NCBI GenBank assembly: GCA_964499685.1
Contig: CAZCLW010000001.1
Coordinates: forward strand, 28,278 to 92,277
Direction: 5' to 3'
Source: an uncultured Planctomycetales bacterium
Lineage (GTDB): Bacteria > Omnitrophota > Gorgyraeia > Zapsychrales > GWA2-47-8
Length of the DNA: 64,000 nucleotides
Of the stretch, positions 2 through 24,000 are shown piece after piece. The notes below the pieces were generated by a model, which saw nothing but the letters and a program-made list of their open reading frames with translations, was not told the DNA's origin and made no database searches. The stretch's first letter is position 1; each line of letters begins with the position of its first letter. The translations under genes and the position numbers were made by a program.

Positions 2-3000
2 ACGGTCCTCGGGTACACCAATCCTTTGGTCCAAACGGTCAATTTCCACAATATTCCTTTAGCTCCTAACGAAACGCTGGTTCCTCAGAATGGGCATATT
101 TATCAGTTGGACCAGCCTTTGACCTCAGCGGCCGACCTCGACCGGATCGTGGCCAATCAAGCTCCGGTCAAAGTCGCCTTTGCCCACCGGAATGAAGCTA
201 CCGGCAAGATCGAACACAAGGTGGCCCCTGTCCATAATGGTAAATTTGTCCATACCGAAGCGCGCGCCGCGACCGTCAACGGCAGAAAGACACAGTTCAA
301 TATTGCCCACACTATGGTCGCGGACAAGAATAATGGTTTCCATGAACGTGAAGATTCCCGTTTAGCGGAGGATGTTGATTTCGGCGGAACAAAATTTGCC
401 AAAGGTACGATCCTGAAGAGTTCCATTCAACCCGGCGTTACATTGTTCGTCGACAAGGATAATCGTCAGCAGATCTTGGGCGCTTATCGCGGGGATCAAG
501 TCTATACTCCCGATGCCGAAAATCGTATCATCTTCTCTGATAAGATTCAGATCGATGGACAAAAAGGTTCATTCGGCCTGCAAAGAGAATATCTGGCGGC
601 CGGTAAAGACCTCATTCTGACAAAGGCCGGGTTCTTGAAAGACCAGCAGCCGGTCATGATCAACGGTCAGTCCATCAATGACCTGCCGATGGACAGCGAA
701 GGTGCCTTCCGTAACGCGCAGGGCGAAATCGTTGCTGTGTATAAAGAAGACAAGAACGAGAAAAATGAAGATATCAAAAAAGTATATGCTGTTAACGACC
801 GACGCTATTTGGCGGAAGAAGAAACAGTCAAGATCATGAGTCCTGCCGATCCCAAGAGAGAGATTAAAGTCAAGGCCCGTCCAAATCTTTACGTTTATGA
901 TCGCGAGAATTCCTCTGCGCCCTATATTGTCTCGGAAGATGTTAAAGAGGCCGGTGTAAAGGCCGGTGATGAGATTTTCCTGAGCCAAACGTATGATGTC
1001 CGGGTTGTGCGCAGCAAGGAAAATGGAAGCTTAAAAGGGTTTATCGGCAAAGATAACCGTTTCCACACTTTTGCCACTGATGAAGATCAATTCATCATTC
1101 CTCCGCCGAAGCACAGCGCAGATGGTTTCCAGACGGCTTCCAAAAAGGAAATCCAGCAAGAAATGGTCTATCAGGATGCGTTGGCGCTTCAGCGTAATTT
1201 AATGGTCGGCAATAGGATATTTGCCAGCGAGGGGAAGGCCGAAGAAAAAGAACGCGAAATTACCGCCTTGCATCAAAAGGTCGAACAACTGACCCGGGAG
1301 TTGGGCGGAAATTGGCAGTTCGAGCGGCAAGGCACATCCTTGTCCATGACCTTACAGTCTACTCCTGAGGAAGTTGCTCAGTTGGCAAAGGAAAGCCAGG
1401 CGTTTGCCAGATTCGTTCTGCGTATACAGGACAAGAGCCAATATACAGATGAACCTATCCGTATTTTATTTGATCCCATGCTCCAGGCGGAATCAGGCAA
1501 TGGGAGACCGGGCGAGGTCGCCGGCAGCAAGTATTGGAAGATGGGAACGGATGCCTTTATAAGCACGGCCTTCGGTTATGCGACAACGCACGGTACGGGT
1601 ATCGGTAGAGAACATGAATACTATCATTTGGCCGACAATATTTCACCTTTGACCGGGAATGTCCGCTGGGGCGCGACCACAATTGTCAGCAACGGTTCCC
1701 GTTTGCTGCCTATTAATTTAGGTATTTACAACGGAGAGCGGAAAGGATTATTGATCGCGCTCGGCGAAATCGGTGCCCATGTACGCGAAGCCAAGGGGAA
1801 ACTCAAAACAATGCTGCAGGCCAAAGAAAAAGGCAATACGGCCCGTTTTGAAGAATATAGACGGCGTTCTCTGGAGCCGTTGACCCGTGCCCGCAATATC
1901 GCTTTTGCCAGCGAAAAGGCTCTTACAGTGACCCTGGCTTCTTTAGAGACAGGTACAGCCCAAGTTGAAATCGTTCCTGATCAGCATAACTCTGCCATCA
2001 AGGTCGCCCAAATTTTATCCAAAACGCCTAGCGGTGAAGTGCTCCCCATATCTCAGCCGCTGCCTGTCGGAGAAGAAGGTTATCTGACGGAAAACAACGG
2101 ACGGACTGAGCTCAGCGAGCGCGGGAAAGAATGGGTCCACAAACAATTGACCGTCGCTAAAAACAAGGCTGTAAGGCAGGGACTTTATGCGGAAATCATG
2201 CTCAGCTCAGCCAAGAACCATGCTAAGGACTTTGCCCTGCTCGAAGTTGCCGCCCGCACCTCTTTACCTCGTGCTTTGACATTGCTCAAAGAGGCGCAGG
2301 CCAATGGTGAAGGTAATTTCTCTGATATTGAAACAACCGCTCAAAATGGCCTGCGCTTGATCGCTGAGGCCGTAAGCACTTCGAATGTTGAATTAAGTCC
2401 GGATGGAAAGAAGCGCACGCATTTTAATCCGTTGACCGGCCGCGGTTTTGTCATGGATGTTAAAACGAAACAGATCGAAAAATTCATTTCGAAGGGCGAA
2501 GGAAGATTGGCTTCTTCGGATATTCTGGATCAAAGGACAAAATACAATATCGACGCTGAGATCGAATCAGCCCGTACAGGAAAACCGCTTTCTATCCAGG
2601 GGAATCTGGTCTATGCCAACGATGCGGACAGACAAGCCAATAAGCCGAATATTTTACGCCGCACAGAAGTGGTGGACACAAAAGAAAACGGTGAAGAAAT
2701 CGAAGCCGAAGTCGATTATCAGATCCATTATGAAAACGATCGCAATCCTTATATCGTCCTGAGGGACCAAGAAGATGTCCGGCAAATACGGGAGCTTAAT
2801 ATAGAGGAAGGAACTTTCGGCGAAAAGAGATTCCTTGTGGCCAAGAATGATGACCGGTATGGCCTGAAGGCGGGAGATGAAATTGTCTCTGCCGGCAATA
2901 TCGCCCTCTTCCGTAACGGTATAGGCGGAGAGATTAAGGCGGCTGAAATACCCGGAAAAGGAGTCCGGCCTGTGGTCGATGGCCGGTTGAGCTTTGGGTT

Positions 3001-6000
3001 GGAAGATATTAACATTCCTCTGTCTGACGGAAAGTCGGTACCCGTTCCTAATGAGATGGTGTTTAGTATCGATCCGCAAACCGGTGAGCCCGGAACTTTA
3101 TTTACGCGTTTAATGCCTCAAGCGCCGCTATCGGTTGCCGGCGGCGAATTGGTTATTGAGTCCGGAGACCGGCTGTATGAAGAAATGGGAGTTGTGACCA
3201 GTGCGCAAGGAGAAATCAAAGGATTTGTTCAAGGATCGGAGTGGAAAGCCGAAATGGCACGCCGCGAGATCAGCGGTCCACAGGATATTGTAAGCCGCGA
3301 CATGGAGTCTCCACTTGAGATATCAAAGGTTAAGGGCCGGAATATTTATCATGTTGAGTTTGCGGATATACGTGCTCAGAATCGCGCTTTTGGCCGTGTG
3401 ACGCTTTTTGCGGAATCCAAAGAGCATAAAGGACAGGTAGCGGAAATGTCGGCAGTGTCGGAGTTTGCTATGATCGGCCATGATCTGACCGTCGGTGATA
3501 TGGTGGAGTTCTACAATAGCGCAGAGCAAGGCGGTATAGAGCTTGATATGGCCGAGCAAGTGGTCCGGACCGCTATGATCAAAGAGGGTCTTATCGCCAA
3601 AGAAAATGGACGGTTCGTGACAAAGTCAGATGCGGCCGTCCTTGCCGTTGCCCGCGATGATTCTCGAAGGCTGATACAAGATAATGATCACCGCGCCGAT
3701 CTGGTCGGGCATGAATTTAATCACGGATTGTATTTCACAGATGCCAACTTTAAACAAGGGGTTGAGCAAGTATGGCAAATGCTTGCGCCGCGGGAACAGA
3801 AAGCGGTCAAGGATTTCTTAGTTTCCCAGGATATGTATGATGGAGAAGATGAGGCTTTAGTCATAAGAGAATTTGCCGGTTGGTTCAGGAGTTTGCGGTC
3901 GGTTGACCGCATGGCCGACGGAAAGATATCTGCCTTGCATGATCCCGAGATCAGAAAAACATTTGAGGATGTGGAAGGCATGCTGTTAAGTTTGGAAAAA
4001 GATGTAATGGCCATGACCGCAGAGCCCACCCAGCTTGCCAAACCCGGCCAGACCGGCAGCATTGATATTCCGGACCAGAAAAACGCCGCCATGTTGGGCA
4101 GTGTCGAAGGACAGATCCGTGCGCCGCCGGTTATCGGGACATTGCCGGTTCCTTTTGTTCCTCCCGCACCTGTTCTTCCTCCGGCTATCGGCCTGTTATC
4201 CGCCAGACAGCCGGATTCAGTTGAACTCAGCCAAGAAGCCCTTTTAGCCTCATCGGTCAGCGGCATTTTAGCCCAGCCGCCAAAAAAGACATCTGAAATC
4301 CCGGAAAGACCCGAATTCGTCCGGCGCGTTGAACCTGCTTCCGGCTCATCCGCGGCCAACGATCAACGACAGCGCGGATTTGATCAGCAAAGATCGAATC
4401 CGGCGATGCTGGCCTTGGTGCAGTCCGAACCGCTGTTCGTCGCTCCGTTAGCCAATGCCACGCCTCAGCAGGAGATCGACCGGGCGGCCCGTGTTGTCCG
4501 CAGCGCTGACGATAAAACTTTAACCACGTTATTCACGATTGCCGGTATACCGCCGCAGGAATCCCGGGATTTGATCAATGATATCAAGATCGCCCGCGCG
4601 GAAAACCGGAACGTTACTTTTGATCAACTGCCGCAAGCCCTGCAGGAGCCGCAGGTCATCCAGGTCCTCGCCCGTGGGCCTTTGGAAACGATGCCGATTG
4701 CGAATGAGGATGAACGATTTGAATTCGGGGATGATGCTTCTTTATTATTGACGCGTCACGGACCGTATCTTGAGCTGCAGCCGCACGCTCCGAAACAGGG
4801 ATTAGGAAAATTAATGTATGCCTTCGCGGCCCATAGGGCCCAAGAAAAGGGCCTGCAGTTGCGTTCCGGATTGATCGGTACCGAAGCCTTATCCGCCGAT
4901 GACAAAGCCCGCTGGGAAAACATGGTCGCTGCCGGCCAAGCTGAGATCGTCAACAACCATTATGTGGCCAGACCGGATATAGACATTGTTTTGGCGGGAA
5001 TGGATACAAGAGAATTTTATGATACAAACGCCGCGATGCTCGCTTCTTCCCGGCGTGCTATTCGTCCAACGCAGTCCAATGCCGTTGTCGCGGAAAAACT
5101 GGAGCAATGGGTCGCTGCCCATGATCAAGAACTCCGGCCCATGGCCCGCTTCATCGCCGATAATATCACCCATATTTCGCAAGAGGATTTTGAGAGTGCT
5201 CTGGGTGAATCGGTCGATCAGTTCAACCAGGCGACCCAGGATGAGCCTTATGTGGTCCTTCTGCCGCCCGGCAATAAAAGCAACACCTGGGTCTATCAGC
5301 TTGCGAGAGAAAATAATTTACGCGAACCCGTTGCCGTCCATGTTGTCGGATCCGACTGGCAAGCCGCCCATCCGGACGTAAAGAACGTTGTCCTTATCGA
5401 TGATGCCGCGTATTCCGGCACAAGCACCGTAGGTTCATTATCACGATCAGGCCTCATGGATCCCGATCTTAGCGATGTGAAGGTCCATGTCATTACGCCT
5501 TTCATGACCGATTGGGCCTTGGACCGCGCACAAACCGCCAGAGCCAATGTCAATGTGTACCGGAGCGGCCGTATCAAGACCGTTGACGACATTTTAAGTG
5601 AAGATGAGATAGCCAATGCCGATGGCATCCGTTCAAAGATCCTGAGCCTGAGCGGCGCCACGCCCGGAGAGCTCAGCCGCCAGACGCTGACTTATTTTGA
5701 TCATACGATAGGGGATTCTTTATCGACCCTGTCCTTGAACGGCCACAGCATTTTTGACGGAGCGGTCGTGGATAAATTCGGTTCCAAACAGACCGCTGTT
5801 CCTTTTGTCGAGAAAACAGTCCAGCCTTATCGACAAGGGGCCAACCAAGCGATGCTGTCCTTGCGCTCGATGGACAGCCCGATCTTGTCCAGCCGCAGAG
5901 CTCATCGTTACGCCCAAGCCGTCCAGATGGAACCGTGGAATTGGGAACCGGTCGTTGACAGCATAAGCGAAACCCGGGCCGGGCGGATGTTCGAAAGGGC

Positions 6001-9000
6001 TAAGGATTCTTTAAGAGGCGGTAATTTCCTCAGAGCCAGATTGCAGTTCAACATGGCCAGAATGATGGCGGAAAAGAGCGAACCGCAGCTGGCTGAACGC
6101 GCCAAAGGATTCGCGGACACTATCCGTCGCAGGGATTCAAAGGATCCTCAAACCGAGAGCGCACGTCTCTTGGGATATGAACCGACCGTTTATGATGTTG
6201 CCGATCTTGTTTTAAGCGTAAGACCGGAATTGGCGGTCAAAGTGCTCGAAGAAGATCAGGGGACATTCACTCCGCAGCAATTTGCGGCGACAAGAGATTT
6301 TCTCTTCTCTATTATGCAGCAGCAGGATGAAGAAAGCATCAAACCGCGGTTCGGGCTTGATCATCCGACCCCTGATCCACGCCACATACCGGCTTATGTG
6401 AGCATCTTTATGGCCCAGGTGAGGGATTCCGAAAAGATAGATCCTGAGATCAAACAGCAGGCCTTGGAAGCTTTGGCCGCCATGCCGGAGATCACGCCGC
6501 AATGGTATGCCAAGCACGTTCGCATGGATGCCGAAGTCGAGGAAAGAATGCGCACAGGGCATCGGCCGCTTCTGGCCGCCGGCCGTGGCGTGCCGCAATT
6601 GGCAGGCACTTCCGAACAACCGGCCCGGCCGCCGATTGTTGAAAAGCCGGTCACGGCCTCAGAAAGAGCCGCCGTTACGCAGACAATGTATGACCTGGAA
6701 GACGGCATCAAACAGGTTTCCGATCAAGACAGAGACAGATTATTGATGCAGATGGCTGCCTCTATCGGTCCTGTCAAGGACGAAGAGCCTTCCATCAAAG
6801 AAATGCTGGCCCTGCGCACCATTGCTAAAGTCGCGGAAGGCAAAGATGTCAAACGTCTTTTGCGTGAAGCAAGACAGAACAGTAATGTCGATACTTCTAC
6901 GGTCACGGATGAAAAGATCGAGTGGGTCGCGCAAAGGATCAGCGATGAATTCGGCCCGACATACTCTGTCTGGGGTGCTCCGACGATGATCCAGCAAGCC
7001 CGTAATCAGTTAGGTTTGCCGGACCTTACCAAAATGATTCTTCTTGAGGGCAGGGAAGCGCCTTCTATCGCCGGTAACGCCGCGATGCTGGCTTCAGCCC
7101 GTCAAGCAACGAAAGAACGACTGGTCCGGCTGCAGCAGACCCTGACGAGCGGTGCAAAAGCAGGGCTCGAGTTTGAAGATCGATTGCTTGAAAGCAGCAC
7201 TGGGGATATCACGCCGCCGGCGCATTTGGTCCGCAGGCCTGACGGTTTATATGTGCATATGCACTTGAATGTTCCGGGTGAGGACGGCAACCAAGCTATT
7301 TCTCACGGCATGTTCTTTAAGGTAGAAAAATTATCGCCTGAAGGTGTGGTCTTAAGCGATCCGTTGATGGATGCTTCCGGCGATTTCAATGCTCCGCAGA
7401 TTGTCCGTTTGGAAGATTTCCCTGAATATCAGAAAGAGATCGGCGATGTTGTCCAAGCCGCCGCTCAAACAGTGGGAGGGCGCCTAACTGAGCTCACGCC
7501 TCATTTGCAGAATAACGGCCGCATCTCTTATTTCATGTCGGGCGATGACCTCATGCAAGTCTCCAAAGCCATTCCGCAAAATCTTTCCAAAGGCGCTTTC
7601 TTGACTCCCGACGGAGAGATCAAAGTCGTCGATTTGCCGGCCGGTACGGCGGATGTTCCGTCCATGTTCGGCATCTCGGTCAAAGCGAGCCCCTCGGTTG
7701 ATCAAAACGACGGCCAAAATCGTATGACGATAAACCTGCAGCGTAATGATCCGCAAAAGCCTGAAATGATCTTTTCGAGAGATGTCATTGCGGAAGAACC
7801 GGTCTCGGAGCAGGAAGCCGCTTATGCCGTCTCCATAGCTTTGATGGAATCCATGGCGGAAGAAAAAGAATTACTGGATACAAACACAGCCTATGTCATT
7901 CCGCAATACAGGATCCGCGAAGCCCGTCAGCAGATCGCCTTGGCCACATCCAATGCCGCCATGCTCAGCTGGACGGACCGCAAGGTCAATAACATGGCGG
8001 AAGTGCGTAACACTTTGGCCAAGTCCACGGATCTTTTGGGATTTGAAGCGAATGTTGCGCCGTCTTTGGAGTATCAACAGGCCGTTAATGACCTTATTGA
8101 GTTTTTGAATGAGCAAGGCGTCACACCTCAACGTCTGGAACAAAAATATAAAGAATGGCATGGGCTCCTGGGCGGAACAAAAATCACCGACGCCGGCGAG
8201 TATCAAGAAGATTTTAAGGGCCAGCATCTACAAATTTTTGAGCGGTTGGTCAAAGGTGACCTTAGTCAAAAAATAGACAGTGATCCCGTAGGTGTGGCCG
8301 CGGAAGTTATCGCGGACCTGGTTTACTGGCAGCCTTTCGTGGACGGCAACAGCCGTACCGCTGGTTTACTGGCCAATTATGTCCTGATCAAGGCCGGTCA
8401 CAGGCCGTTTATCCTTGATGAACAAAATATGTCGGTCTACGAGGATATTGTCCGGCTTGAGAGCTTCGGCAGCCTTCGCGGGGAAAAATTGCAGCAGTTC
8501 AAGCAGGCAAAACTCAGGGAATTTCTGGATGAGCAGTTCATTTCTCGTCAGGTCGCCCATCGCGGTTACAGCGTGATCCGTAACGGCGAGAACGGGGGAG
8601 GACAATGGGAGGTCATGCGCGCGCCTGTCAGCATTATCCGCGATCCCGAGGTCCAGCGTTTAATTGAGACAGAATATTTCTCAGAAGATACGGATAGAAT
8701 AGCGGGCGGCGCACTCTTTAGTCCTTCCATTGATGAAGCCAAGGCCCGCGAGATCTTTGGGCAATATAAGGCTTTGCTCGATCACATGTGGAAAACAGGC
8801 AATATCCAGGATGTGACGGTCGATAAATTATTCTTATCGCCGGACGGAAGGGTTTATTATCCCAACTTGGTCACACGCCTTAAGACGGATGTCCACAACC
8901 AGGCCGATCTTTATCCTGCCGTTTTCACGGCGGCTATTCGCAACAAAAACCGGGAGCTTTTAGCGAAAGTTCCGGCATCGGTCCGCCAAGCTTTTGAAAG

Positions 9001-12000
9001 CGAAATGAAAGACTTCCTTACTGGGGATAATTATAAGCGTCTGCGCCAGGGTGGCGCCAACGCCGCGATGCTGGCCTCACTCAACACCAGAGGCCTGGAA
9101 GCTGAACAGATAAAAGAAAAGATTGTGGAACGCAAGCTCGACCGCAAATACGAAGCGGCTGCGCCGGAAATCCCGCTGCAGGATTTGAGAAAATATGCCG
9201 AAGTTTATTTCGGCGAAATGATGGAACCGCAGGAGATGAAGGGCATCCCGGAAGCGGCTGAACAGCTCATTGCCCGCGCCCAGCAGAAGAACAGCGGTAA
9301 TTATAAGAAGACCATTGATGAGGTCATGCACGCCTTTGATCAAGCCATGGACAAAAAACCGGCGGAAGTCACTGCCTTCCTTAATAGTGTCATCACTGAT
9401 GACGATATCAAGCAGTCAAACCGTTTAAGCGCGAGCGCCAAAGCAATTACCGAAAGGGCCATCCGCCGGACTTATGAGGAATTACATCCCGATGTTCAAG
9501 AAAGCATCGTGGCGGTCATCGGCACCGGCAGCGTTGCCCGCGACCGGGCCGTGACCGGCGTTCCGGCTTTGCGCACGACTGCCAGCGATTACGATGTGCG
9601 CGTGGTGGTGAAGGATAAAGAATCGATTGCTTTTGCCGACAGATTTTTTGAATTGCTTCCTCAGAAAATGGAAGCCGAATTGATCGCGGCTGGATTCGAT
9701 AGAAAGCAGATCCGCGCCCAGGACATTTTAGATGTGCAGAAGGTGGATGTGGAAGTTGCTCCTGACAAGAAGGCACTGGGCAAGGTCATCAGAGATATTG
9801 TCCGTTCACAGGTGGCCCAGGAAGGCGTTTCCGCTTACCATGTGGTTGAATTCCGCGAGCAGCCGTCCAATGCCGCGATGCTCTCGGTACCGGCCCGTCT
9901 GTCTTCTTACAGGCCGGTCAATACGTTCGTTCAAAGACCGCTCATTTCGGCCGCGCCCGATCAAATTTTGAAGCAGCAGTGGATCGAGCGTCATCCGGCC
10001 GATATGCGCTCGACCGCCAGGTTTATTGCCGATAATATTCAGCATATTCCTCAGCAGGAATTTGAAAGGAAACTGCAGCGTTCCGTCGCGGCCTTTAACG
10101 AAGAGATCGACCGCCGGCCGTATGTTGCTGTCAGTGAAACCGGCAAGAGTAATGAGTGGGTCTATGAACTTGCCCGCGAACAGGGCTTGAGAGAGCCGCA
10201 GGCCGTGCTGGAACCGGATGAACTTGAGGATTGGCTGAAAGATCATCCGCGCGTGGAAGACATAGCTATTTTCGATGATGCCTCTTATTCCGGAACGCAG
10301 ACTGCCGAGATCGTTAGGACGGCCATTTTGGCTTCGCCGGAAAGGGATGCCCAGGTCCATGTGGTCGTTCCGTTCATGAGCCGCGCCTCGCAGGATATGA
10401 TTATGATCTTTAATCAGAATTCAGACGTCAATTTTTACGATCAACAGATCATACCGACGATTCCGGAGTTGTGGGAAGAGGCTTACGAACAGGCTCAGCT
10501 GGCCAATAATACTCAACGTTTGAAGGAACTGGAAGAAGTCAAGATAGTGTTCGGTGAAGTTTACGGCGTCAATATGGTCCAAGATAAACCGGAGGGTTTG
10601 GCCGGAGCCCCGATGACCTTAACTTATTTTGACCATAAGATACCGGATAATGTTTCCGCGGTCGCCCCGAAGCGCCATGAAAAGAATGTTTTAAATGGTG
10701 TTGTCGTGAACCGTAGCGGTGAAATTACGGCGAACGTTCCGTTCATCCCGGCCGTCAAAGAGCCGTATGCCGGTAAATATATGGCCTGGGTCGAAAAAGA
10801 ACATCCGGAGATTGCCCGGTTTGTCGCATCGGAAGCGCAGAATCGAAGACCGGCCGCCGCTAACGCTGCCATGCTGAGCAACCGGACCCTTGAAGCGATC
10901 GCCGAACGTATTGCGCCGCAGCCGCTCAGCGCCGAGACGCAAAGAGAACTGGCCAAACTGGAACAGACCCTTGTCCATTCGCCGCATTTGGTCAGGTTCA
11001 GCGGATTGACCGTCGCTCTGCCGGAAACAACGGAAGGCCGGACAATACAATATACCGAGAATGACCTCAAGGCGTTAAAGCGGAATTACTACATCAATGC
11101 CATCCAGAAGGAAGCCCGCAGCCAGAAAGTTTTGCGCGATGTCGTCCTCAAAAGGGTCGATGCCTTGACTCCTGTTGTGGATGTCCTCTCCAAGGAATTT
11201 GCGACCAATGACTTGTTAAAAGAAGAAATTGAAATAGCCGATCCCGAGATCCTCTGGGTCGGGTTAAAGGGAAGCGCCTTGTGGGGCGTTAAAGGAAAGA
11301 AGAAAGAGGACATCGATCTTGTCGTCATGGTCAAAGGTGATTTCACCAACCGCCGTTTCTTTACGATCCCTTCGGCCAATTTCGGACAAGAGGTCATCGA
11401 TCATTTGAGAGAGAACTACGGCGAAGATATTACGGATACCAAGATCCAGATCAACATCATTTCCGACAAATATTTGACCGATCCCGGGTTTGTCGCCGGG
11501 ACCGACAAGCCTTCCCGTAAACGCGTCCAGGAACGGTTGATATTCTTGAGTTCCGTCGCCGATACCACCCTGCCGATCTACAGCAAATTTGAGCAAAATC
11601 CTTTTGATGATATCGAGCTCCATCCCTGGTTACTCTTGGCCCAGGCCGAAAGCCTGATCCATGATGCTCAGCGCTACTTGCAATCAAACGACCATGACCC
11701 GCGTTATGCCGAGCTCAAAGTCGATAAACGGTTGATCGAGGCGGAATTGGCCATTAATTCCATTATGGCCCAGGCCGAGAATCAGGGGATACGGTACAAC
11801 GGTGAGGTCGGCATCGTTCAGCACATGAAAGGCGTTTCACCTCTGAAGCAAAGATTGATCAATCTTCAGCGCAAGGTCAATTTTGTTAAGACGAAATTAC
11901 CCGAATTGGTCAAAGAGCGCGAGGCCTTGTTTGAAAGCGAGGCCAAGACGATCATCGGCCGCGATACATCTATATTGGCTGCTCGTCCGTTGGCATCCAC

Positions 12001-15000
12001 CGAAGGATTTGGTCACGATAACTGGAACAGCCATTTTGACATTGCCGCCAAGGATGAAGGCCGGCGGGTCATCACAGAATTTTTAGATAACGACCGTCAT
12101 GCCTATGTCGGTTTTGGGGATATGTCCAAGATCTCGGCCATGGACAAGGGCTCTGTTTCCCGCCTGGTCGATATTCTTGTTCCTTTCGAAGTCAGGTTCA
12201 TGGATGAAGAATTGAAGAAATACGGCGGCCGGGCCGTGCGTCTGATGTCCGATGAGATCGTCCCGATCTTGCCGTCGAACCTGTCTCCGGGGAAAGTCAA
12301 TGAGATCCGTATGGATGTCCAAAAGAAAGTTTCCGGCCTGATCGCCAACCGTTTCGGCCAGGCGCTGGTCAAGGGTGTGACCGAAGAGAATGTTGAGGAC
12401 ATCCGCCGGGCCGTTCAGGATAACCTCGGAGAGGCCATCTTTGTGGATCTTTATAAAGATGAAGACGGCTATCATATCGTTTTTGACCGTCAGGGTGAGG
12501 ACCTTGAGACGGCGTTTGAGAACAGTTTGACACTTGTTAACGCCGGTCTTGCCGTTCAAGGCCGGGCTGATCTGGAATTAAGTCGCACCGACGCTAAACC
12601 CGTGAGCATGCTGTATAACGGCCGGCAGGTGCAGGTTGATCTGAGCCGTCCCATGCCGGTCTATTCTCCCAAGATTGCTTTTGGCTTTGACAAGGCCGCT
12701 GAGGTCACAAGTGCGCAAGACGGTGCTGAACCGAAATATGATGCTCAAAAGTCTTTTGACCGTGTGGTCAAGCGCGCCGAGTATATTTTGAACCGTTCCA
12801 AAGAAGAGGACAGGGCCGGTGGCATGTACACGGATTTTGCCGATGAACTGGATGAATTCAGCGCCGGAAAAACAGCGACGTTGCCGGCGCTCGACGTGGA
12901 AGAAAAGTCATCCATGGTCCGTCGTCTGGCGGCCGCCGATATCCGCCTGGCCCCGAACATGATTGAAGATTATCTGCCGGTCTTCAAGCGCACCGAATTG
13001 GGTTCCATCTTAAGACAGTTGATCGGCCACGGCGGCGTGACATTGATGAAGGCCGATATCCGTTATATTCCGCAAGGAAAGACGGCTGCCAAGGTCCAGG
13101 AATTATTGACCCCTGACCCGCAGACCGGTAAGGCCAAATTCACTTTGGATACGTTGCGCGGAAAGCAGAACAGCGACGGAAGCGTTGATTTCGGGTTCAA
13201 GATGTGGAATGAGACCAAAGACCACGGTGACGCCAATAAGACCCTCTTGGGTATCGTCAACAGCATTAATGAAGGCTTGAAAGAAGAAGGCGTGCGTGTG
13301 GCCTTGACCAGCCGCGGCCCGCCGGATGAGATATATATCGCCTTTCCTGCCCATCTCCAGAGATTTAATGAAGAAGATTATGTCCGCATCATCGACCGTA
13401 TACAGAAAGAGATCAATGAGGCCCTGGCCGGAGAAGCCGCGGTCAGGATCAATGCCGCCGTTGTTGAGAGCCGTACGGTCGGCACCAACGTTTCCGATAT
13501 CATCACCACGGCGGATAAACTGACCAAGATCGAAAATGCCATTGCCCCCACCGTTACTCCTCAAGGCAACAACATAAGGACATTCAGCATAGAGCCGGCT
13601 TCCCGTGACGCTTATAAGGATGAAGTCGCTGCTTTGCGCGCCTTCAACCGCGCCAAGGCCCGGCTGATCCTGGCGGAAAATTATGGTAACGGCGAAGAGA
13701 TCATCCAGACCAATGCCGCGATGTTGGCCGCCCGTCCTGAGCTGCAGATCCGTACTGTCAATAACTTCACGACACAAGGCGAATTACGTTCTTACGCCCG
13801 CGAGTTGATTGATTCCGGCGAGCAGCGTCCGGTGTATGTCTATGACCCGAACAACGGCAAACCGGTCCTGCGCGTTGCTGATACCCTGCAGATGAAGATG
13901 CCGGATTTCGTCGAGAAAGACGCGATCGTTCTAGCACCGGTCGGCCGTGTCGATGCCTTTGCCGGACCTGAAATGCGTTCTCTTATTCAGCGCGCTGACA
14001 TTGATGAGCGCGCGACTACGTTGGCCAGCTTGGGTATTGTCCGCAGCAATCAGCCCATACATTCGGTCGTGATCGAAGGCCGCGACCTGGTCGTTCTTCA
14101 TCCGGCCCAGTTCACTGACCGGCAAAAAGGATTTATCCAGGCCTTGATCGAGGCGCAAAAAGCCAAAGGTGTCGCCGTTGACATGGTCGCCTTTGTGGCT
14201 GAAGAAAGCCCGGTGCTGATCGATGGCAAGGCCAATATGTACGCGACCAGCGACGGTCAAGAAGCAGGAAAGAGCGTTCTGTTCATCACGCCTGAGTTCG
14301 TCGAAGAACAGGTCAGTTATTTACACAGATTTACCTATAATCAGGGTCCGCAGTGGGCCCGGGATATCGCCAGACCCGACATGCCGTTCGGTCTGGATAT
14401 TTTCAGCGGTCAAAACGCCAATAAGGTCAAAGAAGAGATCGGCAAGATCAAGATCCCGTTGACGAAGGTTGATTTAACCACCGAAGAGATCCTGGCCAAG
14501 GCTTATCCGTCAACTCAAGAGACCCGCATTGTCTCGCGTGATATAGTTGATCTTCCGACGGTGGAATTAAAGACGCCGGAACTTCCGCTCATGCCGGCAA
14601 TCGAACCGGCCGCGCCTATGCCGGTGCAAATGCCGGCGCCGGTTACCATGCCGGGCCTGGTTTCAGCCCAGAGAACGAATGCTTTTGAACGGCCGTCTAC
14701 GATCGCACGGCCTCCGGCAGAACCGCTCCAGATTTCTTTAAGAGAACCGTTTGATTGGGTTCAATACAGAAAAACTTCCAATGATCCGAGCTTTGGCGCC
14801 TCCACCTACGCGGGTTCACGTGTCATCCGCGAATTAAGCCGCGGATTTGTGACGACCCTGGAAGACCGGTCGAACCGTGCCATGCTTTCCATTCCGGCCC
14901 AGGTGCGGCCGCTGCCTCCGGATGCTATAAAGAATTTCATTTCCGCTGTGTTCAACGAACGCCGCGTGCCCGGTCTCTTGCGCATTTATGTGGCCCGCAC

Positions 15001-18000
15001 CACGGCGGATGAGAAGGCGAGCGCAGAAGAAGGCCGCATTGTCCTGCGCGCCAAGACCGAAGAAGAGTTGCCGCAGGCGACGTTAGCCATGATCTCCGCC
15101 GGTCTGGACAAAGGCTTATTCAAGCCGAACCAAGTCAGTGAGCTTATCACCGAAGATGATTACCGTGCCGCTGCCGAGGAGATCGGCCTGCATCCGGACG
15201 ATGCGCTTGAGTTCTTCCTGAAAACAGACCATCTGGCCGTTGTGTATGAAAAGACCGGTCCGGATATCGGCACTTACCTTAAATATGTCGCCAAAACAGA
15301 CAGCGGCCGTGAAACAGTTGCCCAGGCTTTAGCTGAAACTCTGGCGGAATTCCATCAGGACGGCATCGTCGGTCAAGGAAACTTGAAGCAGTTTGTGGTC
15401 TTGGATACAGAAGCAAAAGATATCGCGGTATTGCGCATCGGTTTCGATCGGGAGGAAGGATTAACAGCCGAACAGGAGATCGCCGCTCTTCGCGTGGAAT
15501 TACAAGAATATCCGCTGGCCCTGGTTAAGTTCAATGATAGCTATACTGTTGCGATCGCCAGACAAGCAGTACCTCTTAATAACTTCTTCGCAGGAAGAAT
15601 GCCGACCGCTTCTGTCTTCACCGCGATCGAACCGGGCATCCTGCCGGTCCAGCCGATCCTTCCTGTACAGCCGCCATTGATGGCGCCTATAGGCATTATG
15701 CCTATGGTTGAAGCCGGTTCCGCTGCCAACAGCGCCATGCTGGCGAATGTAAAATCCGGACTTGAAGAGGTCATCGCTAAAATTGAGAGCGATCAGCATC
15801 TTTTAGGTAAGCCTAAGTTTGAAGTTCGCGACATCCAGCGCCGCTTGGCCGAAAGTTTGATCACCGGCAAGATCGGTATTGCCCAGAATGCGGCGGGTAA
15901 GACCTTGGCCATATTCCTGACAGCTTTGGAGAAAGCGAAATTTGGAAATAAAAATGTCACCATCCTTACGTTGGATGAAACGTTCTCAGGTGAAGTTGCG
16001 TCTTCCAAGATCCCCGGCGGCTTGGCCCAGTCGTATCCGGATATGGTCGCCGGTGTTATCGAAGGCGGCCGGCTGGTCGACCTCGATAGGATGGTCAATG
16101 AATTCGATGATCTGCGCAGCAAGGGCGAGAATGCGCAAGCCGCCCGTGTCGCCCAGGAGATCGCCCAGGCCCTGCTCGATAAGAAGGCGATCAAGATCGT
16201 TTCGCTCAATACCCGCGGCCATATGCCGAATAAATTCACCGAATTCCCGCAGGTCTTGCTGGGTCTCAAGGCGATCAAATCACAGAACGGTGTCACCATC
16301 CTCGACGAGGTGGACGATGCGTTAAACCGCGAGGTTACCTACATCGTTTCTCTGGATGCGGAGATCTCCAAGAGCCCGGCCCTGCAGAAGGAAGTCGCCC
16401 AGGCCGAGCAATTGTTCCAGATGCTCAATCTGGAAGGCATTGCCGAATTGCAAGGCACAAGTCATCAGCCGCGCGGTGCCCTGATCAAGCGCGCCAGGAC
16501 CTTGGCAGATTTTGAAAGATTAAGCGCTGGAGGGGAACCCGCGTACTGGATCGGATTGCAGGGTAACAGTATTTTGACCGGACAGAGGGAATTCCTTTTG
16601 AGTGATGCCGTCTTCAGGACCTATAAAGATTTTGATCAGCGTTTGATCAATGATATCGCCCGCGGTATCGCGACCGAGATCGGTACTGAACTCGACGTGG
16701 ATAACAGCCTGTACCCGACCCAGCTCGTGCCGGTCTTCAAGGGCGGCGAAGTCCAGCCGGACATGCTTTCCAACAGTCTGGCCTTTAAAGTGGCCCAGAC
16801 GCTTAAATACAATGTCATTCATAAGGGCGAAGGCCGGCCGCTTAAAGTCGAAGCGATCCGCCTGTCCAAACGGCTGATCCGTGAGAACCCGATCCAGGAA
16901 ATGTTCACCGGTGATCATGAGATCATCGGTGTTTCCGCGACCGATGCGGGCGCGCGCAGCATTATCCAGGTCAAGACCGGTGCCAAGGACATTGTCCGGG
17001 CGGATGAAGGAAGCGACTTCTTCACACAATTGACCCAGGCCAAAGGAACGCGTAAGGCCATTGATATGCTGCCGCAAGAGGCCGATGTTGTGGCCCAAGC
17101 CGTCGGCCTTATTAAGGAAGCGTTTGAGAATGCAGACGGCGAGCGCGGTGTTTTGATTATCACTAATAATCCGAATGATCAGCAAAAGATATTCAAGGCT
17201 TTAGCCGCTTCCGATGAATTCAAGAAAGCCGTGGAAGAGTTGGGTGCCCGGTTGGGCGTTCAGCTGACCGTCGCCGAGGTCTTGCGTGAAATAACCGGAA
17301 GCACCAGCAAAGAAGAGATAAGCGGCAATGAAGAAAAAGGCATCAAGGGCCTGGTCAAGCTGACCGGCGTCAACAAGGACAATGCCATTCCGCACGTCGT
17401 GGTGGCCGTGCCGCGCGTGGCCAAGCAGTTCAGCTTCGAAGGTGATCTGGATGTCGTTATTGTCGGCGCTGAAGGGTTCACCCGCGACTTCCTGACCCAC
17501 GCCGTCAACCGCAATACCCGTGCCGAAGAGGATCAGGGCCGCAAGATCGTTCTGGTCAATGAAACGAGATTACAGGAAAATCTGCAAGTGGCCAATGATG
17601 CCCGCGAGGACCTCAGGGACCTTGGGGATGCCGAAGATATGCGCAAATTGGCGCAGGAGCTTGCCAAATTCAACGACGAGTATAAGAGATATACAGATGA
17701 TGAAAGACAGGCGAAAACAACCGAGATCCTGACGAGACAATTGGCCCTGAATGCCGATTTCCTCCAGTTGAACCAGACATCGGCCACGCATAAAAATACG
17801 ATCCTCACTGTCTTCAGGAATACCCGCATGACCACACCGTTGCAGGCCCTTTTGGACAGCGGTGAATTGAGCGCCACCGATCGTGCGGTCATCGAAAAGA
17901 TCAAAGGTCAGGAAGAAAGCGGCAAGTATCTGCCTCTGCAGCGATTATTGGATGCGCCGGTCGCCGGGAACGAATTTGTCCGCATGGCTTCACAGGAACT

Positions 18001-21000
18001 CTGGCAGTCGGCCATTGCCATGTTCAATGAATTGTTAGGTCCGGTCATTGTCGAACAGGAAGGTAAGGAAACGAAAGTCGCGTTAAGCGATAAGGGGCGT
18101 TACAAGGTCCAGGCGCTTTTGGATGTTGCGACCTCGCGCATGGTGGCGGAGAACGCCGAGTTCGATGTAGCCAAGACTTCCCGCGACGGGTTGAATCAGA
18201 CCCTGCAGGACCTGGAGCTCAATTCTTTTGATGTGGCGACCGGAAGAGACGCCGCCCAAGCCGACCGTATCGCCCAGGAAGGTCTGGATAACCACCGTAA
18301 AGTTTTGGAAGTCGCCAAGTATTTAGGGCAGGAGATCTTGCCCAGCCGTATCAGCCCGTCCTTTACTCATTCGAACCCGGTGGCCCGCTGGTCGGATAAG
18401 CATTCCACTATCGCCCAAACCGCCGCCGCCAAGGTCGGTGATATTGCCGGTATCCTGCCCGGCTTGACTGCCGAACAGCAAATAGCTTTATTGAATATCT
18501 TCAGCGAAGACGAACGCGGCCTCTCCGTCGGAGAAGGACAGGTCCTGACCAACCGCGGCCGTCAGGTCATCGAGATGGTGCAGGCCATGAGCCGCGATGG
18601 TTCCATTCCGCGCGACGGTGTTTATGCCTTGCAGGTCTTGACCGGTTTTGACCGTTCACGCGAAGAGATCGCTTCCGCCGATCAGGAACAATTGACGAGG
18701 ATCGCCTTTGATATCGCTTTGCGTTTGGTCGATGTCGGTTTGGCGGATCTTGCGCAAGCCAGGCAACTGGCCGCCATGGTCACATTCTGGCAAGAACGTC
18801 ATGTCGGTTCAGATCAGCGTCCGGCCCAGGAACGTTTGGCCGCCTTGAGCAAGATCGCCATTGAGCACAGTTTGAAACCGTATCGCCTTTCTCTGGCGGT
18901 TGCCGACTTTATCGGTGTCCCGGCGAACGATCCTGCGTATAACGGTATCCTGAACATGATCGCCAAGGGCGATCTTGACCGGTTGAATGAAGAATTGCGC
19001 ATACAATCCGTCCAATTGAGCGAGCTCGAAAACGGTTGGCAAATATTGTGGCACAACTTCTTCGGTATCGGCCGCGACTTTAGGAAAACCAGCAAGGAAT
19101 TTGCAAAAATAAGTAACCCCACTAACGCCGATATGGCAAAATTGCATCAGGAAATATTTGCGGGTGATCCCAATGCGCCGGAGTTACTGGAGTTTGTGCG
19201 CATTGCCGGGATTGATTCGTCCATTCCTGTTCTTGGGCTTAGTTCCGGCGTGGATAGTATAAAAAACATTGAGCGGGCCCAGCATACTTTGAATATCCTG
19301 CAAACCAATGTTCCCGAATGGCTGGTCGAACAGAAACTGGATCAGTTGGCCGCTGCTCTAGATGACCCGAGATTTTTGCCTGTCTTCCTGCCGGATCTCA
19401 AGAAATTTTATAAGAAGAAACCCAATGATCTTATTGAGACGCTGACGGTGCTGGATAAAGTGATCATGGCCGGCCTTACCGATAAGATGGTAAGCAAGGT
19501 TTATAAGGATTCCGGCGCCCGGCAGACCTTCCGTCAGACACCGAGGATCAATTTAGGCATCAATGAATTTATTGAACATGTCCGCAAGGAGCTTTCTTCG
19601 CCTGAAAAGCAAGCGATCGCCTGGCAGATCGCGGCCGGCCGCGCAATTTCGGAAGCGCAGATCGAGGAGATCAAAACATCTTTAAGCGTCTTGCCGACGG
19701 AGGTAAATAAGGGATTATCTTTGGCCGATGCCATTGAGGCGATCGATGACTTAAAGAAATTGTCAGCCATCGTAGGTAAGTTTAAAGAAAAGAAGCCCGA
19801 AGAAATTACGGACCGCGAACAGTACGCGGATTATGTTGCCCGTCGGGAATTGGGCGAAAGATTGGGCTGGGAATTGACCATGGCCCGCTTGAACGAGATC
19901 GGGCTTTCTATTCCGGGACGTTCTCCTGTCCAGAGCCTCCGTGTCTTTGCTTCCGAAGAAGAGAATTCACCGCTCGCCCAGATTACCAGAGAACTTAAGT
20001 CCGGCCGTATTATGGCCGAAGGCGGCCGCATGGTCAGCATATCAACTTCCGATGATAAAGAAGGCATCGAGAATATTTTGGCCGTAAGGCAATTGGTCCA
20101 TAAAGGGCAGTGGCCGCGCCATATCAGTCAGGTTACCGTGACAAAAGACGGCGGCTTCTTCAAGGTTATCCGCAATAGCGAAACCGGTGAAGTCCAAAGC
20201 ATCCAATTAAGTCCGGCCGCGCTCAAACATTTTGAAGGTTTAGCGAGTGTTGTTGCCGTGGCCACCGAAGCCAAAGAGAAACCGGCATCTCAGCAGGCGC
20301 TTGTTTTGGCCCAGGCCGTGCGTAAGTTAATGACAACGGAAGAAAGCCTGCCCGAAGATATTAAAGAGATTGCGGCCGTTGCCAATGCCTTTGAAACCGC
20401 CCAAGCCGGTCAAGAACATGTTAAGGCCGCTGAAAAGGCTCTGGAGATCGTTGCCGGCATTAATAATAGAGAAGCCGGTTCGATTACGGCTGAAGAAAAA
20501 GATTTGGCAGCCCGGACCATCAAGCGCGTTGTCATGGATCCGGAAGAAGGAAGAGAGTTGGCTAAAGCGGAAGAGATTGCTGCGAGCGAAGCAGATAAGG
20601 ATGACGATAGCGACATTCAACCCCCGCAAGCCAAGCGTTCCGGCTTTGGCCGCTTCTTCGCGAAGTATTTTGGTATGTTAACTTTGGCGGCGCTCTTAGC
20701 AGGAAGTCCTCGTGCCGTTGCCAAAAACGTGGCCGCGGCGGAAGCGAAGCTGGTTCAACAGGAAGCTGCCCTAGCCGCTTATGAAGCCACAGCTCCGCCG
20801 GCCCGATTGGCCGAGTCGATCAAGCCTCCTCTGCCTGAAGAAGATTTGACTGAAAGCCTTATCACGCCTCTGGCGCCGAATGTGCCGATCGAGATCCAGA
20901 TACCTCCGGCCATCATGCCGCCGGCTGTATTGCCGGCTCCGATCCTCAATTTGGGTGCTATCGGACCGCTTAGCAAGGCGGAAGTACCTCTAAATACCAC

Positions 21001-24000
21001 TCCTATAGGACAAAGCGAGCAAGACCATAAGAACCGGGCTGTTCCGCTGCCTGCACCGATCACTTTAGCCAGTTTACCGGCCCCTGACGGCGGCACAGGT
21101 GGCAGTGGCGGCGGCTCAGGCGGTTCAGGCGGTTCGGATCCTGGTGCCAGCCCGGCCGGACCCAGCGGAAAAGCCAAAGCCCCGAGTGCTTATGTAGAAT
21201 ATGCCCGGGCCAAGGCGGTCTCTGCTCAGGATATTTTGAATTTAGTCTCTGTTAAACCCAATACCACCCGATTTGACGTAGTTAGACAGTCAGACAAGGA
21301 TCACCGTACCAACTTCAGTAGAAGTGGTACCAGCCCAACAATTATCCGCGCTGTCGCCCTCTCCGCAGAGGGTCAGACAGGGCAAAATGCAGTAAGCGCG
21401 GAAAGCAGCATACGTACTGTAACAGAAACAGATGCAAATAACGTCAATGTAGCTAAGTCATTGAGATCCATCAGCTTAGGCGAAATGGGTCAAAGTGACG
21501 GAGTTTCAGGTTCGAGTAGTACGCCTCAAGAAGCAGATGCAAACGTTGTAGAAGTTGCTTCAAATACTGTAAAAGTTGTGGGTGTAGAAGTTCGCTCTTT
21601 GGATCAAGCTGGTAATAAGTTCGGCCGTGCGCCGTATGCCATGATCTTGCCTTCGGCTATTATAGAGAAAGCAGGGGAAAGCGTGCTCCGCGTGGTTGAG
21701 GCTGCTACCGGTGCGATTCAGGCTGTACCTAGTACAAATGCAGTAGAAGTAGTTGTGGGTAGTGGTATCGTTTCAGCCCAGACCGGTGCTGGCAACAGTG
21801 CCGCCAGGACTGAAAAACAAGCGTTACCTAAGGTTCAAGAAGTACGTCCAGTTGCAGAAGCAGAACGTAATAGAAACAGATCCAGACTTGTCAAGGATGC
21901 TCTCAAGCAATTGAGAGGTACCGCTGAGCAAGTCAACCGTATTGTAAAGGCTGCACGCAGTAAGCAGTATCGCTCTGTCAGTGGACATCGTGAAGTCACC
22001 ACAGCTGCTGCCGATAACTCCGGAGACGGAGAAGTTGGCGGGGATGCTGAAGATGCAAAACGTGCTTCCCGAGCTGTCGCTGATACTAACGTAGAAAGTA
22101 TCTCTGACAAAGGTACATATCAGATTCTCGGAGTGCGCGCTGAAGAAACAAGCAAGCAAGCCGAGATCAAGTTCTTGAAGTCTGCGAGCTCTACCGGAAG
22201 TGAAATAGAAGGTAGAGATTCTGTCTTAGGTTCGAGGACTGTTACCAATGTCGGATTAAATAATAGAGACGAAGTAAAGATCCAAATCGCTGACGCAAGA
22301 TCAGCTGAAATTCTCGGAGTGCGCGGAAGTGAAGAACGCGAAACTGCCGGGAATCGAGTTTTAGGAAGTGTGTCCGGAAGCCGCAGTAATCCTGCCAAGA
22401 AGCTCATCCGCTTCTTCAATTCCATTGTTGCGTCCCTCAATCAAGAAGTAGCCCGTAACCTGATCGCGTTCATCATCGCCATCAGCGTTGTTCTGTCTTT
22501 ATTGAAGCACGTTCAGCAAGGTCGTGCCCCGAACGTCGTTGTCCGTACGATCCGCATGGTTGTTTCTACAAAAGACCTGGTTGGCAAAGCTTTGGCTTTC
22601 GCCGGCCAGGTCTTCTTATTTAACCAAGCCGAACAAAATTCAAAAGGAGGTACCATACTATGGTTACCGTCAATACGCTCCAAGCAACAGAAAGCTACAA
22701 CAGCCTCAGTTTCCGTTACCTCGTTGAAGTCCCAAAGTCAGAATGCTTCTTTGGCTCAGCCAGAGACCAGCAAGGCAAAAGCCACCTCTTCCTTATCTTT
22801 AACGACGGCCGCACGTACGCTCGAAACGGCCTTCGAAGCACGTGGGAAGAGATCACGCAAACAGCCGATTACGACAGGATCCGCGGACTTGTCAGCAACG
22901 CCATTGCCAACAAGACAGTCCCGCTTTATTCAACAAATCGGCTCAGGCTTAACTAAAGTAACTAAGGCCACTGTAAAGAGCATCCTATCTACCGTGGCGG
23001 GTATCGGAGCTCGTACAGTGGTTATGGCAGGAGCAGTTCTATTCCTGGCTGCTCCTGCCTTTGCGCAAGCTCAGCAACCGTCAGCGCTGATTGCTGCCAG
23101 CTTCCTTGGCTTATCCACCAATACCTGGCTGGTTGTCGGGGGAGTTCTGGTGGCCTTTGGCGCGATTTTAGCGGCCATTAAGTTGTTCAAATACTTCCGT
23201 AACTTAAGCGACAAAAAGAAGCTTTGGACCAACAGTGTTCTTATTACGCTTCTCCTTGCCCTGATTACAGGCATGTTTGCAGGAGCCATGCCGCCAAATA
23301 TGTCGTCGTCTCATCCGGCTATAGTTCCAGTTAATCATCAGGCTGTCCAAGAACAAGCGGCCTTGAACAATGTTGCCCAAGAAGTTCAGTTGAAGTACTT
23401 CGAGCTCATCAACGCCGCCATCAATGATCCGGCAAGAGTCGCTCAATTAAGAGCCGAATTCGAACAAAAAGCTGCGGCGATCCAAACTTTGTCCGGTACG
23501 CTAGGCGGAAACTTAACTGTGAATATGGCTCTCCTGGATGAACAGCTCCAAAACATCCAGAATGTCAGAGATAGACGAGCCGCGGTCCAGGCTGCCCAGG
23601 AAGAAGCTGAAAGGATCGTGGAACTCAACAGACAAGCTGCCGCGGACGCCGTCCGTATCGCTGAAGAACAAAGGATCAACCGGACATTCGGCGGCAATGC
23701 TGATACCGTTCCGACGCCGGATCTTCGCGAGGCGGTCTACAGCACCTTCTTCTATGATTACAACCGCCGTCAATTATTAGAGAAATATTTCGGCAACGCT
23801 ATCAGCTATGAACGCGCCGTCCTGACCATGGCCAGACGGTTAAGCGCTCTGAGCCCGTATGTTGTCTTAGAAGACGGCCGCAGCGGTTTGATGGCCATCC
23901 CGGCCAACGTTTGGGAAGAAGTCATCGCCGGTCAAACCATCCGCACGGGACGCAACGCGACACCGGTTGTTTGGACCTATCAAGACAGATTTGACGTTAA

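Follow-up and report, generated by a model that had tools for sequence, protein, structure and literature searches.

Whether bacterial proteins of 20,000-147,000 residues are single chains or are cut into many is an open question, and for the giant proteins of Omnitrophota it was left so in two recent studies (Nielsen and Lui, 2026; West-Roberts et al., 2023). It is raised again by a 64,000-nucleotide (nt) stretch of contig CAZCLW010000001.1 (the window in the following), the whole of which is a single open reading frame (ORF) on the forward strand (nt 2-64000; 21,333 codons), open at both ends and encoding a giant protein that probably comes from the phylum Omnitrophota. In the first quarter of the window, this protein carries 12 copies of a short motif, Asn-x-Ala-Met-Leu followed by a small residue, which is located solely at the borders between modules and is thus a module-boundary punctuation at the protein level. 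In the following, we describe this motif and its counterparts in distant relatives, and weigh the reading that we slightly favour, namely that a chromosomal polyprotein may be processed endoproteolytically at the motifs, which would be recognised by a protease co-evolving with its lineage.

A sharp, lineage-specific border motif provides concrete candidate cut sites. The absence of cleavage-point information has blocked the structural analysis of giant proteins (West-Roberts et al., 2023), and neither this study nor that of Nielsen and Lui (2026) reports a punctuating motif or cleavage points; likewise, full-text literature searches returned nothing relevant on the motif or on bacterial giant polyproteins ('NAAML' retrieved irrelevant papers only, and 'PRTase-CE', the name of a module family described below, none). 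By means of the punctuation, giants can be treated unit by unit in structure prediction and annotation, proteomics is given specific predicted neo-N-termini to look for, and an uncharacterised HExxH…E family comes into view as a candidate processing enzyme. The punctuation also suggests a gene organisation in which many enzymes are encoded in one frame and separated at the protein level, which was previously tied to viruses and not to cellular chromosomes. Polyprotein processing as a kind is already known; new here would be its occurrence in cellular giant genes with lineage-specific sites.

A motif confined to module borders

The motif, in full [S/A/T/G/K]-N-x-A-M-L-[A/S/G], occurs 12 times at amino acids (aa) 1361-5243 (nt 4082-15745; Table 1), with spacings of 105-950 aa. 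A first-pass annotation, made from the sequence alone, had listed ten of these copies. All ten exist, no more than a few nt from the coordinates given, but two copies had escaped it (NPAMLA at nt 4397 and NQAMLS at nt 5843); the recurrence that it described thus stands, but not the spacing of 270-950 aa. It had correctly seen no copy after 16 kb, as the last one ends at nt 15745 and all 12 lie within 18% of the protein, and its impression that the surroundings are mostly unconserved, so that the motif cannot be put down to a repeated domain alone, is borne out as well: the flanks are unconserved, and the sole internal repeat of the punctuated region is the exception that it had named, a pair of PRTase-CE modules that are 35% identical and each begin at a motif. 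Proline-rich low-complexity stretches (e.g. PPVIGTLPVPFVPPAPVLPPAIG and ILPVQPILPVQPPLMAPIGIMPMV) are found beside motifs 1-2 and 12 (nt 4100-4396 and 15600-15727).

Table 1. Features of the window on which the analysis rests (coordinates in nt, with aa positions in parentheses)
Feature	Coordinates	Strand	Remark
Giant multi-module protein with motif	2..64000	+	uninterrupted frame without stop or Cys codon; domain matches
Unannotated conserved HExxH…E domain (aa 1094-1334)	3281..4003	+	invariant H1237, E1238, H1241, E1290
Motif 1, NAAMLG (aa 1361-1366)	4082..4099	+	low-confidence AF2 tail (pLDDT below 50) past folded domain
Proline-rich spacer of ~100 aa, motif 1 to motif 2	4100..4396	+	
Motif 2, NPAMLA (aa 1466-1471)	4397..4414	+	missed by first-pass annotation
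Motif 3, NAAMLA (aa 1676-1681)	5027..5044	+	
PRTase-CE module 1 (aa 1685-1945)	5054..5836	+	fills segment from motif 3 to motif 4
Motif 4, NQAMLS (aa 1948-1953)	5843..5860	+	missed by first-pass annotation
Motif 5, NAAMLA (aa 2359-2364)	7076..7093	+	
Motif 6, NAAMLS (aa 2651-2656)	7952..7969	+	
Fic/FICD-like core (aa 2753-2827)	8258..8482	+	within 369-aa segment from motif 6 to motif 7
Motif 7, NAAMLA (aa 3020-3025)	9059..9076	+	
Motif 8, NAAMLS (aa 3290-3295)	9869..9886	+	
PRTase-CE module 2 (aa 3307-3591)	9920..10774	+	motif 8 to motif 9
Motif 9, NAAMLS (aa 3621-3626)	10862..10879	+	
Motif 10, NAAMLA (aa 4571-4576)	13712..13729	+	
Motif 11, NRAMLS (aa 4958-4963)	14873..14890	+	
Motif 12, NSAMLA (aa 5243-5248)	15728..15745	+	final copy in window
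First predicted transmembrane-helix cluster (aa 7483-7763)	22448..23290	+	entire punctuated array lies N-terminal of it

The enrichment over shuffled sequence, a check that the first-pass annotation had proposed, is pronounced. From the composition of the protein, 0.015 occurrences of NAAML and 0.15 of N.AML would be expected, against eight and 12 observed (Poisson P about 1e-19 for the latter); the highest count was four in 500 whole-protein shuffles and at most two in 100 first-order Markov simulations. In a position weight matrix, the 12 sites score 25-30 bits and the next best position of the protein 6.7 bits. Because of this gap there is no halo of decayed copies, and a search for degenerate copies across the protein with the weight matrix and relaxed patterns found none. 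N.AML is the sole strongly enriched gapped 4-mer of the whole protein, and the other 16,000 aa yielded no further punctuation motif. Within the sites, Met is invariant in all 12 copies and Leu is always followed by Ala, Ser or Gly, whereas the codons vary synonymously: Asn is encoded by AAC or AAT, Ala by GCC, GCG or GCT, and Leu, across two codon boxes, by TTG, CTG, CTC or CTT. This variation indicates selection on the peptide rather than a nucleotide signal or a recent repeat.

The placement of the sites follows the borders of recognizable modules. Each recognizable domain keeps to a single inter-motif segment, and the four domain matches in this part of the frame, i.e. the HExxH…E domain, the two PRTase-CE modules and the Fic core, never span a site. 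Moreover, when complete stand-alone PRTase-CE proteins (277-290 aa, with an initial Met) are projected onto the giant, they cover aa 1668-1951, with motifs at 1676 and 1948, and likewise aa 3298-3594, with motifs at 3290 and 3621. In the multiple alignment, their initiator Met shares a column with the first motif residue, and their C-termini end just before the next motif. Similarly, stand-alone proteins homologous to the HExxH…E domain terminate, in projection, at aa 1323-1369, with site 1 at 1361. Since the stand-alone proteins match the inter-motif segments, each segment is equivalent to a whole protein. When the segments were scanned one by one with Pfam, NCBIfam, PADLOC and PHROGs, the matches were otherwise only weak, for instance to the DUF294 nucleotidyltransferase (E = 0.02) and MTase_II (E = 0.04) families, and, in PHROGs, to Fic, M23 and PGM-like families.

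Relatives and their lineage-specific motifs

The searched collections hold no close orthologue of the giant protein. Relatives were recovered solely by an exhaustive HMMER search with aa 1100-2299 as the query against 1.84 billion representative proteins, which gave 1,049 matches; megablast and tblastn against phages and plasmids found no DNA or protein match, and both word-seeded protein searches (aa 1340-2700 and aa 1000-1360) and peptide-pattern scans of genome, viral and metagenome contigs came back empty. The best matches are proteins of 2,000-7,700 aa, all of them distant relatives. The top two, P0001 and P0002, are encoded by adjacent giant genes of one Candidatus Omnitrophota genome, with other loci stemming from further Omnitrophota genomes; by accession, MBF0522532.1 and MBF0522531.1 come out best, along with two other loci, all from Candidatus Omnitrophota genomes.

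Unbiased motif discovery in these relatives revealed short, strongly enriched motifs with unrelated flanks and a spacing of 200-800 aa, the counts of which were never reached in 2,000 shuffles per protein. The motifs differ between lineages: we found G-A-R-L-[A/S/T] in P0028 (7,022 aa; 22-24 copies against 0.24 expected), R-S-E-x-R in P0025 (nine against 0.06) and at locus L009 (seven copies), R-x-E-L-R in P0136 (nine against 0.14), Q-x-D-G-G in P0085 (six against 0.04) and D-x-A-M-[T/A] in P0002, P0001 and P0012 (11, 13 and seven copies; 0.3-0.5 expected). The motif of P0024, [D/N]-x-A-M-[L/T/A]-[A/S], is intermediate between that of the window and the DxAM type, and in the relatives, 166,702 aa in all, the exact NxAML string has just two incidental occurrences. 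The motif of the respective lineage flanks the PRTase-CE module on both sides in five lineages. A test by orthologues, which the first-pass annotation had suggested, is therefore answered in two ways: the distant relatives lack the exact string as punctuation, yet have motifs of their own in the equivalent places. Of the roles that it had considered, that of a module boundary is upheld, as no motif interrupts a detectable domain, the segments correspond to stand-alone proteins and the motifs of the relatives stand at the same borders.

As in the window, the codons are diverse (for GARL, Leu is encoded by CTG, CTA, TTG, TTA or CTC, and Arg by five codons), which places the conservation at the amino acid level. 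In our own alignment, a comparison of the motifs suggests a shared core, A-x-(L/M) and then a small residue, represented by A-M-L before A, A-R-L before A, and A-A-M before A or T. Since one motif is common to the two adjacent giant genes of one Omnitrophota genome, its reader would be genome-wide.

The DxAM-type relatives P0001, P0002, P0012 and P0024 also have in common a signal peptide followed by a conserved N-terminal domain of ~370 aa, and a conserved C-terminal domain of ~70 aa (…GGIDLN…M.LQ…NAPGF.PVII.I.P…), both domains being separated from the variable modules by the motif, which suggests a common carrier frame around exchangeable modules. Remoter PRTase-CE homologs (loci L006-L011) are found in metagenome-assembled genomes labelled Chlamydia, Planctomycetia, Candidatus Berkiella, Bdellovibrionales and Candidatus Woesebacteria; a host-associated, predatory or epibiotic way of life in several of these groups hints at an effector role for the PRTase family.

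The most telling of the relatives is P0028 (loci L005/L013), a complete chromosomal Omnitrophota gene among housekeeping genes (aconitase, DnaJ, OGG). Canonical twin-arginine (Tat) signal peptides follow 9-16 residues after three of its GARL sites (TSRRRFLANAAKLLAGGAFA, NRRLFLKNVLGAAFLAASAG and GRRRLLQTGLILGGGLLL), in the interior of the protein at aa 1758, 2178 and 3569, and three more sites are followed by Sec- or transmembrane (TM)-like hydrophobic segments, so that Tat and Sec/TM starts span 6-19 aa after a site. Of the five RRxFL-like strings in P0028, four come no more than 30 residues after a site (0.48 expected), and in P0002 there are two signal-peptide-like starts right after DxAM. 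Tat and Sec signals function at a free N-terminus and would be purposeless inside an uncut chain of 7,000 residues. Their position right after the motifs thus points to cutting, or to separate synthesis, at the motif.

Candidate processing and competing readings

In the favoured reading, the chain would be cut at the motif or inside it, by a protease with a specificity that evolves together with the lineage. The cut could plausibly fall after Leu and ahead of the small residue, in agreement with the shared core, and would release the PRTase-CE enzyme twice, the Fic enzyme and at least eight unannotated modules as separate proteins. The putative cutter would be the HExxH…E domain, which immediately precedes site 1, or else an enzyme acting in trans. 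In a bolder version, which we regard as tentative and as somewhat less probable than its negation, the giant genes of Omnitrophota and of their relatives would be operons without stop codons: a co-evolving protease would cut the punctuation of each lineage (NxAML[AS], DxAM, GARL[AST], RSExR or QxDGG), and the products would be sorted individually, some of them by their own Tat or Sec signals. If this were true, the motif would be the first map of where giants are cut.

The HExxH…E domain is a candidate for a cis-acting protease that reads the motif. It ends about 27 aa upstream of the first copy, and H1237-E1238-x-x-H1241 together with E1290 have the spacing of a gluzincin-like signature. An AlphaFold2 (AF2) model computed with an alignment has a predicted local distance difference test score (pLDDT) of about 90 for aa 1089-1339, which falls below 50 from aa 1353; this collapse in confidence places motif 1 (1361-1366) in a flexible tail. 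The arrangement is repeated in the GARL-type relative P0074, where the domain (1809-2050) is followed by sites at 2089, 2165 and 2208 (0.05-0.2 expected). The spacers between the sites of P0074 are proline-rich, similar to those in the window. More than 100 stand-alone homologs of the domain exist; this family (P0007, P0014, P0020, P0140 and others) is widespread, ~250-450 aa in length as stand-alone proteins and apparently uncharacterised, with the Glu about 49 residues past the invariant HExxH and with conserved GHD[YF] and YFT motifs. A Foldseek search against viral structures found one uncharacterised Megaviridae protein (E = 2.5e-4). In the neighbourhoods of a stand-alone HExxH…E gene and of P0002, P0074 and P0028, we found no linked protease. 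Given that two genes of one genome share one motif, a trans-acting enzyme fits equally well as the HExxH…E domain.

Several observations weigh against the processing of the giant protein, or against this candidate for it. The HExxH…E domain matched no known peptidase in Pfam, NCBIfam, a profile search of Protein Data Bank (PDB) sequences (no matches) or Foldseek against the PDB (best E-value 0.37). It is missing from P0028, P0025, P0136, P0085, P0012, P0001 and P0002, and its stand-alone homologs are found in ordinary chromosomal contexts, with one copy adjoining a cytochrome oxidase operon. Family scans of the window found no recognizable protease for the motif, and a cysteine protease (C80, C39 or papain-like) within the window is excluded, as there is no Cys in its 21,333 residues. 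Three quarters of the window, complete metabolic enzymes included, are without punctuation. By a sequence-based disorder-propensity scale, the profile around the sites is not significant and the flanks are not unusually disordered, and an AF2 model of aa 2340-3539, computed from the single sequence, gave no usable information (mean pLDDT 38). Finally, none of the 12 modules in the window starts with a signal peptide, so that the argument from free N-termini, which is the strongest one, comes from the relatives and transfers to the window only via the shared architecture.

How else could a strict motif come to stand at module borders? One answer, which we consider unlikely though well worth keeping in view, is that it is a docking or recognition peptide: a common partner, such as a chaperone, a translocation or secretion machine or a scaffold, would bind at each module and the chain would stay intact. 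A short motif, strictly conserved amid unconserved surroundings, is what this predicts, and following an Asn or Ser cap, the residues A, M and L tend towards a short helix, which AF2 places, with low confidence, at model residues 363-365. That no protease was identified is in line with docking, too, and the variation between lineages also fits co-evolution with a binding partner. However, the Tat and Sec signals right after the motifs of relatives require a free N-terminus, the termini of stand-alone homologs coincide with the motif borders, and docking gives no reason for a placement at borders only or for motifs on both sides of a 100-aa proline-rich spacer.

The confinement of the motif to the stretches between modules would also be expected of a structural linker (a helix cap or hinge), or of the evolutionary scar of cassette insertion or duplication, neither of which needs a reader. 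Short pre-toxin motifs (VENN and similar) indeed mark the cassette junctions of polymorphic-toxin systems. Nevertheless, we consider this improbable, since a linker leaves unexplained why four residues are strictly conserved without tolerated variants, and why an equally strict but different motif is found in each lineage and is common to different genes of one genome. A recent DNA scar is contradicted by the diversity of synonymous codons, and 15-18 nt are too short for homologous recombination.

We give very little credence to internal translation starts, in which the ATG of each copy would initiate the following module and the surrounding residues would reflect an initiation signal. The invariance of Met in 12 of 12 copies invites this idea, as does the alignment of Met-1 of stand-alone homologs inside the motif; furthermore, the residues after Met in DxAM-type relatives resemble natural N-termini, including signal peptides (MLAGKMFRKFLWFF… and MMTWSVKSLAALG…). 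Yet Leu is kept across TTG, CTG, CTC and CTT and Asn across AAC and AAT, which is selection at the amino acid level, and no Shine-Dalgarno-like sequence precedes the sites. In addition, the equivalent borders of relatives do without a fixed start codon: at several GARL sites, Leu is encoded by CTA, TTA or CTC, and RSExR sites have GCG or GTG at a variable position. Chance or a compositional artefact, for which there is only the moderately high Ala and Leu content, is practically dismissed by 12 copies where 0.15 are expected and by simulated counts of no more than four.

Some more specific identities of the motif or its reader were considered and ruled out: a signal-peptidase I site, since the conserved positions do not obey the rule of small residues at -3/-1; a lipobox, for want of Cys; a C80-type cysteine protease inside the window, for the same reason; and a DNA-level repeat or recombination scar, as the codons vary.

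Known systems and the rest of the frame

Among known systems, the MARTX (multifunctional autoprocessing RTX) toxins and viral polyproteins are the most similar in mechanism. The cysteine protease domain of the MARTX toxins cuts after Leu in unstructured inter-effector linkers with a small-Leu-small consensus (PMC2900308). Common to both the toxins and the giant is a very large protein with several unrelated effector enzymes in a row; in the window, Leu is followed by Ala, Ser or Gly, and effector-type enzymes (Fic and PRTase) are among the modules. By contrast, the residue before Leu is always Met and not small in the window, and the upstream Asn and Ala are fixed as well; there are 12 sites in more than 21,000 aa, as compared to 3-5 sites in about 5,000 aa. 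Pfam scans of the whole window, past both ends of which the protein extends, matched neither the inositol-hexakisphosphate-activated C80 domain nor RTX or hemolysin-type repeats, and the relatives of the giant protein are chromosomal Omnitrophota genes. Without a C80 domain, RTX repeats or cysteine in the window, the protein is not a member of the MARTX family.

In viral polyproteins, an encoded protease (3C, 3C-like or birnavirus VP4) cleaves at consensus sites that are specific to the family. As in the window, a short consensus recurs at the borders of protein-sized units, differs by lineage and leaves its flanks free to vary. The giant differs from them in being a cellular chromosomal gene, in that no protease was identified, and in being punctuated in the first quarter of the window only.

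For the polyvalent proteins of phages and conjugative elements, release by an embedded zincin-like metallopeptidase has been proposed (Iyer et al., 2017; PMC5512222). They too unite many unrelated enzymatic domains, PRTase included, in one polypeptide, but have 2-15 domains, belong to mobile elements and have no described cleavage consensus (PMC5512222). The window has no Pfam match to MPTase-PolyVal and instead encodes the other, unannotated HExxH…E domain; nor did the phage and plasmid collections contain a match, the relatives lying among housekeeping genes. Since the relatives are off mobile elements and the MPTase-PolyVal domain is absent, the giant does not belong to the polyvalent proteins as defined by Iyer et al. 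(2017).

Compared to the described giants of Omnitrophota, i.e. the 'Archaeovorin' and Dockerin types (West-Roberts et al., 2023) and the 'multi-enzyme metabolic cluster' (Nielsen and Lui, 2026), the protein fits the multi-enzyme class. It shares with them a length of at least 21 kAA (thousand amino acids), tiling with enzymes (PGM/PMM, NUDIX, HATPase_c, HAD and CofD), transmembrane clusters and Omnitrophota relatives. With at least 21,333 aa and many distinct enzyme families in one frame, it has the features by which multi-enzyme giant proteins of Omnitrophota are recognized, namely a frame of 10,000 aa or more that such families tile. Published Omnitrophota proteins of at least 10 kAA number 5,761 (Nielsen and Lui, 2026). 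In total, Pfam recognizes two PRTase-CE modules, Fic, Peptidase M23, NUDIX, CofD in three stretches, a HAD hydrolase, two HATPase_c domains, a complete four-domain phosphoglucomutase/phosphomannomutase (PGM/PMM I-IV) and the start of a pyridoxal phosphate (PLP)-dependent enzyme (PALP). Transmembrane clusters are predicted at aa 7483-7763, 11690-13178 and 20082-21047. The M23 domain, which is of the peptidoglycan endopeptidase type, follows directly past the first of these (nt 24872-25108); it is compatible with the cell-wall-degrading role proposed for Omnitrophota giants and is probably not linked to the motif.

A clear bias in codon usage identifies the frame as coding, and besides the three stops both Cys codons are missing from it: TGT and TGC occur nowhere in its 21,333 codons, yet both are common in the other two frames. 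Cys is likewise absent from P0025, P0074, P0097 and L009 and makes up at most 0.07% of P0001, P0002, P0012 and P0024, compared to 0.6-1.9% in other large relatives. Export in an unfolded state, or the avoidance of disulfides in a very long chain, may account for this, but both are guesses.

No NxAML-type motif was found at the borders of the PGM/PMM or the PLP-dependent enzyme, and this metabolic part has no detectable punctuation. The four-domain PGM/PMM is encoded at nt 59429-60985 and the start of the PLP-dependent enzyme at nt 63722-64000, in the same frame. Upstream of them lies a near-identical tandem duplication (nt 43472-46435 and 47609-50566) with a period of 1,379 aa (4,137 nt); the two copies (aa 14491-15478 and 15870-16855) are 94-100% identical, and the unit holds an HELGH string and a CofD domain. 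Aa 13292-14511 and 16821-17937 form an older pair of copies, with 45-74% identity.

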